Shown piece after piece: positions 31,104 to 31,607 of a stretch of DNA of 64,000 nucleotides (position 1 is the stretch's first letter; every line of letters starts with the position of its first letter). This DNA comes from an uncultured Chryseobacterium sp. (GTDB lineage Bacteria; Bacteroidota; Bacteroidia; Flavobacteriales_F; PHOS-HE28): contig CAYZBO010000003.1 in NCBI GenBank assembly GCA_964476665.1, positions 887 through 64,886 of the forward strand, written 5' to 3'. Both the position numbers and the translations under genes were made by a program. Below the pieces are notes generated by a model. The model was not told the DNA's origin, ran no database searches, and was given only the letters and a program-made list of their open reading frames with translations.

Positions 31104-31607
31104 ATGGAACGCGCCAAGAACAACACACCGCATCTGCACCTCGCCGGTGGTCAACTGCTGGAAGCCCGGCGGTCAGGCCTGCTGCACATGCAGGGATCGG
31201 CGCACAGCCTCGAGCCGGTGCGCGAACTGGATGGTGTGCGCTACATCAACGACAGCCGTGCAACATTCCTCGATGCCTCACTGGCATCCATTGCCGAGGT
31301 GCAGGAGCCCTTGGTGTGGATCGCTGGGGCCTGGAGCGATGAGCTCACCGAAGGGCTCACCCAGGAACTGCTCGGCGACCGTCTGCGTGCCGTGGTGCTC
31401 TTCGGCACCGGTCATGACCGACACGCCTTCAGGGACGGCGGCCGTGTGTTCGTGGCCGATGACGTGCGCATGGCTGCGTTCCTGGCCCGCGAGATCGCCC
31501 AGGCGGGCGAAGTGGTGCTCTTCAGCCCTGCCTGCCCGAGCGGCAATGGCTTCGCCAACTACGAGGAGCGTGGGGTCGAATTCAAACGTGCGGTGAACGA
31601 CCTCTGA
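31104..31607 (+). CDS. standalone Mur-ligase C-terminal-domain protein, paralogous to the MurD C-terminus (possible duplicated remnant)
   Basis: The 167-aa ORF aligns with the last ~140 aa of the adjacent MurD: INDSRAT / INDSKAT, PLVWIAGA / PVIWVAGG, EVVLFSPACPSGNGFANYEERGVEFKRAV / [29 protein letters not shown]. It has no ATP-binding or central domain. Confidence 0.6.
   Translation: MERAKNNTPHLHLAGGQLLEARRSGLLHMQGSAHSLEPVRELDGVRYINDSRATFLDASLASIAEVQEPLVWIAGAWSDELTEGLTQELLGDRLRAVVLFGTGHDRHAFRDGGRVFVADDVRMAAFLAREIAQAGEVVLFSPACPSGNGFANYEERGVEFKRAVNDL

Follow-up and report, generated by a model that had tools for sequence, protein, structure and literature searches.

A free-standing paralog of MurD domain 3 between murD and ftsW in the dcw cluster of uncultured Bacteroidia

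What does a gene that encodes only the last domain of a Mur ligase do beside the complete gene for that ligase? The question is raised by a 64,000-nucleotide stretch of DNA from an uncultured Chryseobacterium sp. of the PHOS-HE28 lineage (contig CAYZBO010000003.1, positions 887 to 64,886; hereafter the window), in whose division and cell wall (dcw) cluster an open reading frame of 167 amino acids (ORF167) stands between murD and ftsW. Few parts of bacterial cell biology are as well studied or as conserved as the dcw cluster and the Mur ligases, which also serve as antibiotic targets. A preliminary description had aligned ORF167 with the last third of MurD and regarded it either as a decaying partial duplication of murD or as a retained regulatory or substrate-binding module. 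After analyzing sequence, model and gene-order data, we place ORF167, judged by its sequence, in a family of free-standing MurD domain-3 proteins that lack K348 (Escherichia coli MurD numbering, used throughout). The domain itself is ordinary; its free-standing architecture and its fixation inside the dcw cluster are unusual.

Homology and predicted fold of ORF167

The reported likeness to the last third of MurD was borne out by the searches. Residues 23-167 of ORF167 matched residues 301-448 of the window MurD with 34% identity (BLASTP, E 7e-25), and the sequence blocks named in the preliminary description are present: INDS(K/R)AT, the P-x-x-W-x-AG strand, the SPAC...NYEERG...FK.AV tail and the terminal leucine. 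A profile search gave the same result, since the MurD model TIGR01087, which has 441 positions, matched ORF167 only at positions 298-440 (E 1.4e-25); the 90.3 bits of this match lie below the cut-off of 211.95. The Pfam domain Mur_ligase_C (PF02875) was found at E 1.5e-4 with 23.0 bits, which is below its gathering score of 28.4, and a precomputed PF02875 match is present on most ORF167 relatives. No other Pfam domain was detected in ORF167 at E <= 1; MurD_N and Mur_ligase_M, both present in the neighboring MurD, are absent, which agrees with the described lack of the ATP-binding and central domains. The window MurD is canonical in all three domains, with its NDSKATN, GGVDKGNDY and SPACASFD motifs intact.

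The structural comparison pointed in the same direction. The AlphaFold model of ORF167, built with 40 relatives in the alignment, has a predicted local distance difference test score (pLDDT) of 76.8 and a predicted template modeling score (pTM) of 0.72. Its top 33 matches in the PDB are all MurD chains (135-178 columns, TMq 0.59-0.66, best E 2.5e-9), followed by MurF and MurE. A sequence profile search of the PDB with the ORF167 family returned full-length MurD only, at residues ~291-447, and no solved structure of the standalone form; ORF167 shares 36% identity with Pseudomonas aeruginosa MurD (7sy9). ORF167 is predicted by its model to have the alpha/beta fold of Mur-ligase domain 3, and the C-terminal helix of MurD is retained. 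At the other end, residues 1-13 are predicted to be disordered and are not conserved, and the helix at residues 10-28 contains R22, which is 99% conserved and aligned with MurD R296.

ORF167 cannot act as a ligase by itself, since it lacks K348, a UDP-binding domain and any P-loop or ATPase domain. Assignment to the MurD enzyme itself (the TIGR01087 equivalog) was rejected on the same losses, two missing domains and the absent lysine, together with the score given above. We also rejected cyanophycin synthetase, a name that NCBI attaches to members of ~165 amino acids (P0017, P0058, P0075 and P0415). The cyanophycin synthetase CphA used for comparison has ~870 amino acids, with an ATP-grasp domain in addition to Mur-ligase M and C domains; ORF167 is only 167 amino acids long and gave no TIGR02068 match at E <= 1. 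The naming of the family is inconsistent among sources (MurD, cyanophycin synthetase, glutamate ligase domain-containing protein or hypothetical), and no dedicated NCBIfam family matched ORF167, the sole NCBIfam match being the partial one to the MurD model. Such inconsistent names could distort gene surveys of wastewater bacteria. In a Prokka-based survey, PHOS-HE28 was reported as a prominent cphA-carrying genus in activated sludge (PMC10687191), and ORF167-type genes might contribute false cphA calls. In the literature searched, whose coverage leaves out most subscription journals, we found no description of the gene, whether under standalone or truncated Mur-ligase C-domains, under the Bacteroidota dcw cluster or under its PGAP name.

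Distribution, selection and origin

ORF167 had been presented as an orphan, a label that did not survive the search for relatives. In 5.8 billion proteins, 268 matches were found, and the best 120 of them are all free-standing proteins of 132-177 amino acids with 51-99% identity, whose names, where given, come from Flavobacteriales metagenome-assembled genomes (MAGs). When 1.84 billion representatives were searched exhaustively with a profile, a family core at 150 bits or above stood apart from full-length MurDs at ~120 bits; between and among the two stand many complete-looking proteins of 153-186 amino acids with their own N-termini. The ~360 protein clusters listed across the family are all short, 140-190 amino acids. 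With each GTDB species represented by one genome, an ORF167 relative was encoded in at least 172 genomes, and no fewer than 172 species-level genomes share the murD-X-ftsW arrangement. The standalone sequences fall into four subfamilies across Flavobacteriales and other Bacteroidia MAGs.

The position of the gene is as constant as its length. In 84 of 84 loci, a full-length murD, whose product is 66-96% identical to that of the window, directly precedes the paralog, which is itself 48-87% identical to ORF167. Altogether 93 loci were read; the paralog comes after a full-length murD in every one of them, with ftsW beyond it wherever the contig goes on. Each sufficiently long locus among the 84 shows mraY, murD, paralog, ftsW and murG in this order, apart from L003/L004 (6718-8283) and L048 (~4.5-7.4 kb), where one extra gene separates the paralog from ftsW. 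In L003, this gene encodes 521 amino acids, and its only match is PMT_2, a GT39-like membrane glycosyltransferase domain, at 25.2 bits, below the gathering score of 26.1. In two loci from long-read MAGs, L009 (2649-3991) and L065 (2824-4147), murD is split over several frames beside an intact paralog, and ftsW is split too in L009; these splits are probably assembly indels rather than biology.

Two follow-up sets extended the pattern to more distant relatives. The first is of low GC, with Salibacteraceae, Parvicellaceae and Flavobacteriales MAG names, and the second contains P0165-like proteins together with a low-GC group of 153-161 amino acids from MAGs named 'Bacteroidia' or 'Bacteroidota bacterium'; the best 120 matches are all short in both sets. 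In 7 of 7 genomic contexts drawn from these sets (L085-L087, L089-L091 and the P0131 contig), the paralog directly follows a complete murD encoding 445-448 amino acids, and ftsW comes next in all six loci long enough to show it. The genes of the further subfamilies (L089, 5001-5504; L090, 5001-5465; L091, 5001-5471) occupy the same murD-X-ftsW position. The MurDs of these three loci are 59-62% identical to the window MurD, and the GC of the loci is 0.30-0.48.

The carriers, nearly all of them uncultured, represent a large part of the class Bacteroidia. Among them are Salibacteraceae, Parvicellaceae, high-GC Flavobacteriales matching the description of the family PHOS-HE28, and other MAG lineages. 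No cultured species name was found among the matches in any listing, and the carriers appear to be uncultured. The nearest named carriers are 'Flavobacteriales bacterium' MAGs with 87% and 84% identity, and activated-sludge MAG series are among the more distant ones. One relative, P0469, bears the NCBI label 'Burkholderiales bacterium' and an nr name beginning with 'Bact...'; it is probably a mis-binned Bacteroidota contig. PHOS-HE28 is a Flavobacteriales family of wastewater origin with 59-65% GC (PMC7214798), and the window, at 58-64% GC, appears to fit this description.

The preliminary description had named disruption in close relatives and an absence of purifying selection as signs of a pseudogene, and neither was seen. 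None of the 84 copies has an internal stop. With the start set after the murD stop, the paralogs have 162-178 amino acids, apart from one outlier of 230 in L065, whose murD is interrupted. Longer N-terminal extensions, with open frames of 189-373 amino acids, were rejected, as these frames run back into murD. For pairs with a synonymous distance (dS) below 1, the ratio of nonsynonymous to synonymous change (dN/dS, Nei-Gojobori NG86) was 0.066-0.128 for the paralog, compared with 0.027-0.036 for MurD domain 3 and 0.025-0.130 for FtsW. In the 82 genomes used to compare both proteins, the pairwise distances of the paralog tracked those of MurD (Mantel r 0.75, reached by 0 of 999 permutations) with a slope of ~1.6-1.8, which indicates vertical inheritance with the cluster and an evolution ~1.6-1.8 times faster than that of the parent. 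By these measures, ORF167 is a functional, vertically inherited gene. The proposal of a retained module therefore stands insofar as purifying selection is concerned; the module may be regulatory or substrate-binding.

We also aligned the DNA of the two genes, as had been suggested for dating the duplication. Window murD, which is the parent gene, and ORF167 are 50% identical over 156 aligned codons, with a proportion of synonymous differences (pS) of 0.61, so the duplication is old. A recent event datable from the DNA was rejected because synonymous sites are near saturation; the sole stretch with clear DNA similarity is SPAC...NYEERG (75% over 68 nucleotides). In a neighbor-joining tree, the 39 standalone sequences all form one clade, sister to the clade of cognate MurDs, and a single origin of the family fits this tree, in which the bootstrap support is only 35%. 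Most likely, ORF167 goes back to a single, old, partial tandem duplication in which the 3' third of murD was copied, from the inter-domain helix through domain 3, and since then the paralog has been fixed between murD and ftsW in its Bacteroidia carriers. In the window, the two genes share a reading frame, being separated by TGA and four codons (31089-31106). Across 87 loci, the frame relation is distributed 25/28/34, that is, at random; the in-frame arrangement therefore looks coincidental, and a readthrough or fusion extension of MurD, which would give two tandem third domains, was rejected.

Residues kept and lost, and their possible use

The residues were mapped with alignments anchored on E. 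coli MurD. The ADP contacts of MurD include R302, at the ADP ribose, and D317 (PMC9780078). T321 and, by means of its charge, K348 hold the alpha-carboxylate of D-glutamate (D-Glu) (PMC9780078, PMC3527612), and S415 and F422 hold the gamma-carboxylate (PMC9780078). Part of this set is strongly conserved in the paralog. H301, N316, D317, S318, S410-P411 and R425-G426 are each conserved at 93% or more in every one of the four subfamilies, and F429 and F419 (as F or Y) at 87% or more. T321 is kept at 83-100% and S415 at 94-100% across the subfamilies, while position 422 is Y in 75-100% of sequences and F in the rest. The 17-residue block SPACPSGNGFANYEERG is invariant in the 40 A1 sequences, whose identity to the window protein goes down to 51%, and is conserved in all four subfamilies.

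Other positions have been given up. K348 is replaced in all four subfamilies: by D, E or S in the high-GC subfamily of the window, where the window protein has Asp; by V, L, M or I in the low-GC subfamily; by H or Y in P0165-like proteins, which keep the GG of the loop; and by L, R or S in the last. R302 is kept at 79% in the high-GC and 99% in the low-GC subfamily and is mostly S, Q or H in the other two. K319 is variable in the standalone subfamilies. N322, the residue after NDSRAT in the window protein, is F in all sequences of the window's subfamily and D in 96% of another, and L416 is also changed. In contrast, the cognate MurDs of the same 82 genomes have K348 at 87% and R302 at 100%, and their domain 3 has a mean column entropy of 0.65 bits compared with 1.40 bits for the paralog. 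Constrained in MurD only are R302, the GG-x-DKGNDY loop, the helix after NDSKATN and the SDFQNV linker; constrained in the paralog only are A128, E130, A151 and E155, with fixed changes at F55, D57, F140 and G147. In ORF167 itself, the D-Glu pocket thus keeps T321, S415 and Y422 and lacks K348, and of the nucleotide contacts, D317 is invariant whereas R302 is Ser. Judging from these alignments, the compact loop cluster NDS-x-x-T, SPA-x-x-S and NYE-x-RG survives under strong selection. This cluster borders the D-Glu site in MurD; in the paralog, the remaining catalytic face and the charged D-Glu clamp are gone.

We therefore put forward, tentatively and at rather less than even chances, a putative role for ORF167 as a non-catalytic accessory partner of the peptidoglycan-precursor (Mur-ligase) machinery. 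ORF167 would be co-transcribed with murD and ftsW, and its protein would dock through the retained loop cluster as its functional surface; in MurD, that cluster faces the active-site cleft. Because of adjacency, co-divergence and descent, MurD would be the most economical and the likeliest partner. The tight packing of ORF167 between murD and ftsW counts for this model. Proteins that tune MurD have a precedent in MigC, which binds and inhibits it (PMC12208494), and the binding of MurC and MurD to MurE-MurF involves a region to which the MurE C-terminal domain belongs (PMC10214165). Several observations weigh against an accessory partner docking in this way. The cognate MurD has its own complete domain 3, and a copy acting in trans would need to compete with the tethered one. 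Two subfamilies have lost R302, as have ~21% of the high-GC subfamily, the window protein among them; K319 varies, and neither the GG-x-DKGNDY loop nor the helix after NDSKATN is under constraint in the paralog, so that much of the catalytic face has decayed. Additionally, the N-terminal helix at residues 10-28 is modeled at low confidence, and the conserved residues could simply be needed to hold the fold together.

In a possible, although on balance unlikely, alternative, ORF167 is a scaffold or adaptor. A surface gained after the duplication would tether the soluble Mur ligases to MraY, MurG and FtsW and leave the MurD active site untouched, and the apparent active-site residues would only stabilize the fold. 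The constant adjacency to ftsW, with gaps of mostly 2-40 nucleotides and a 4-nucleotide overlap in L089, is in keeping with a tether, as are the constraints and fixed changes found only in the paralog and the decay of most of the D-Glu and ATP loops. Contacts between Mur proteins made through a region that includes the C-terminal domain (PMC10214165) would suit an adaptor too, and a plant MurE-like protein has been reused as a structural subunit of a polymerase (fold matches 8r6s and 8qma). However, ORF167 has no evident membrane-binding segment, another gene intervenes before ftsW in L003, L004 and L048, and the paralog-specific positions vary by subfamily (N322 to F or D), so no common new surface is visible.

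An autonomous binder of a small ligand, either a carboxylate or a nucleotide, is decidedly unlikely. In MurD crystal structures, the ligand lies between the domains, and domain 3 alone would supply the pocket only in part. It is true that half of the pocket survives in T321, S415 and Y/F422, together with the adjacent N316-D317-S318 and R425-G426, and that K348 alone is consistently replaced; S415 and F422 on the gamma-carboxylate and T321 on the alpha-carboxylate are the residues by which MurD itself holds D-Glu (PMC9780078). However, loss of the sole charged clamp should weaken binding, and the subfamilies differ in what replaces it, one having an acidic and another a hydrophobic residue, which implies no single new ligand.

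Two related possibilities assume that ORF167 takes part in catalysis. In one, which we consider a long shot, the protein would be the second half of a two-piece Mur ligase and, acting in trans, would close over the N-terminal and central domains, loaded with ATP, either of MurD or of some undiscovered Mur ligase without a C-domain. If this were true, a two-piece ligase would be a previously unknown layer of control or chemical variation in the most conserved cell-wall gene cluster. In the other, which we judge very unlikely, ORF167 would be a working lid, a replacement domain 3 on MurD or on an orphan Mur-type ligase without a C-domain, giving a new amino-acid specificity or a split enzyme. 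Free-standing editing domains of aminoacyl-tRNA synthetases, such as AlaX and YbaK, act in trans and offer an analogy only. Changes at the pocket residues N322, L416 and K348 beside kept residues of the catalytic face, and the retention of H301 and D317 in every subfamily, would agree with a lid of altered specificity. However, the nucleotide contacts R302 and K319 are not universally retained, the pocket substitutions are unlike between subfamilies, and every adjacent MurD is complete.

The weakest explanation, a still-open pseudogene left by a decaying partial duplication of murD, can be dismissed as extremely improbable: although the paralog has a ~1.6-1.8-fold higher rate of evolution than MurD, does not reach the Pfam gathering score and has lost K348 and, in the window, R302, all 84 loci are intact with a tight length distribution, dN/dS is 0.07-0.13, the paralog co-diverges with MurD, at least 172 species keep it at the same position although their MurD identity falls to ~59%, and the 17-residue block is invariant.

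Whichever role ORF167 has, hundreds of species have fixed in their dcw cluster an extra gene for the substrate-closing domain of MurD alone, stripped of its D-Glu clamp, which suggests that the carriers regulate or organize the second step of stem-peptide synthesis unlike model organisms. To find such an additional, conserved gene in this cluster would surprise a cell-wall specialist. It offers a handle on Mur-ligase regulation or assembly and bears on how far Mur ligases act as assemblies.

Gene layout and comparison with known systems

The placement of ORF167 between murD and ftsW was confirmed, and the coordinates of the genes and of the mapped segments are collected in Table 1. Across 87 loci, the median spacer between murD and the paralog is 19 nucleotides, and the gap to ftsW is usually 5-40 nucleotides in relatives. 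The cluster is of the Bacteroidota type and occupies ~23.6-39 kb of the window on the + strand, in the order rsmH, ftsL, ftsI, murE, mraY, murD, ORF167, ftsW, murG, murC, ftsQ, ftsA and ftsZ. The GC content at third codon positions is 0.77 in ORF167 and 0.79 and 0.82 in its neighbors. A consensus scan of 28000-34000 found no sigma-70-like promoter, although the sigma-70 consensus may miss Bacteroidota promoters; neither spacer flanking ORF167 contains a terminator-like site, and promoter or terminator sites around the gene did not exceed the shuffled expectation. No Rfam family of structured RNA reached its gathering score within the window.

Table 1. Positions of ORF167, its mapped segments and its neighbors in the window
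Feature	Coordinates	Strand	Description	Basis
murD	29745..31091	+	448 amino acids, full length	TIGR01087 E 7e-122, positions 3-440; Pfam MurD_N, Mur_ligase_M, Mur_ligase_C
Spacer	31092..31103	+	murD stop to ORF167 start, 12 nucleotides	direct sequence reading
ORF167	31104..31607	+	free-standing MurD domain-3 paralog; 167 amino acids plus stop, ATG at 31104 to TGA at 31607	homology, fold, conservation, selection
N-terminal helix	31131..31187	+	residues 10-28; homologous to the MurD helix linking domains 2 and 3	predicted secondary structure, alignments
H34	31203..31205	+	equivalent of E. coli MurD H301, invariant; next residue (R302 equivalent) is Ser in the window	alignment
NDSRAT	31248..31265	+	equivalent of MurD N316-D317-S318-K319-A320-T321; N, D and S invariant, T nearly so	alignment
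GAWSD loop	31326..31340	+	in place of the MurD GG-x-D-K348 loop; lysine absent	alignment
SPACPSGNGFANYEERG	31524..31574	+	loop and helix with S415, F422 and R425-G426 equivalents; most conserved stretch of the family	alignment
ftsW	31616..32791	+	downstream neighbor	starts 8 nucleotides past the ORF167 stop

Beyond murD and ftsW, the ftsL gene is of the FtsL_2 type (Pfam E 2.5e-26). Past ftsZ lie a YqeY-like gene (39052-39507, Pfam E 4e-43) and a gene for a protein of 471 amino acids (39522-40937) with an SprB repeat and a CHU_C type IX secretion sorting domain (E 2.7e-15). FtsL_2, the YqeY-like gene and the SprB/CHU_C type IX secretion protein support the Bacteroidota origin of the window. 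The interval between murE and mraY (27026-29736) does not contain murF, which must be encoded elsewhere in the genome; a dcw cluster without murF at this site is usual in Bacteroidota.

The closest known system is MurD domain 3 itself. ORF167 is like it in homology (34% identity to the neighboring MurD, 36% to 7sy9), in fold and C-terminal helix, and in H301, N316-D317-S318, T321, the S-P pair, S415, Y/F422 and R425-G426. It differs from MurD in having no N-terminal UDP-binding domain, no central ATPase domain and no P-loop; the ORF167 family has lost K348 and the GG-x-DK loop, has often lost R302 and has changed N322 and L416. In the lipid II isoglutaminyl synthase MurT-GatD, the Mur-ligase-type C-domain of MurT is the docking surface for a separate protein, GatD. 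The likeness, by analogy only, is that a Mur C-domain lies at a protein-protein interface and acts on the D-Glu of the stem peptide. However, MurT keeps its central ATPase domain and carries its C-domain (DUF1727) in the same chain, and no glutaminase gene adjoins ORF167.

MigC resembles the proposed accessory partner in that a binding protein modulates MurD activity (PMC12208494); it differs in being a COG0523 GTPase that is unrelated in sequence and binds MurD domain 2. MurE-like chains of the plastid RNA polymerase (8r6s_Q and 8qma_O) are among the fold matches of the ORF167 model and show that a Mur-ligase fold can be put to use without ligase activity. In contrast to ORF167, this plant PAP11/MurE-like subunit is a full-length MurE homologue of a eukaryotic organelle, and neither MigC nor PAP11 is a single-domain paralog within a dcw cluster. 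HisZ, AlaX and YbaK belong to other protein families with other chemistry and serve as a model only for how such proteins tend to work. Their likeness to ORF167 lies in the evolutionary pattern, in which duplication of a piece of a multidomain enzyme left a separate gene whose product works together with its parent or on the pathway of its parent.

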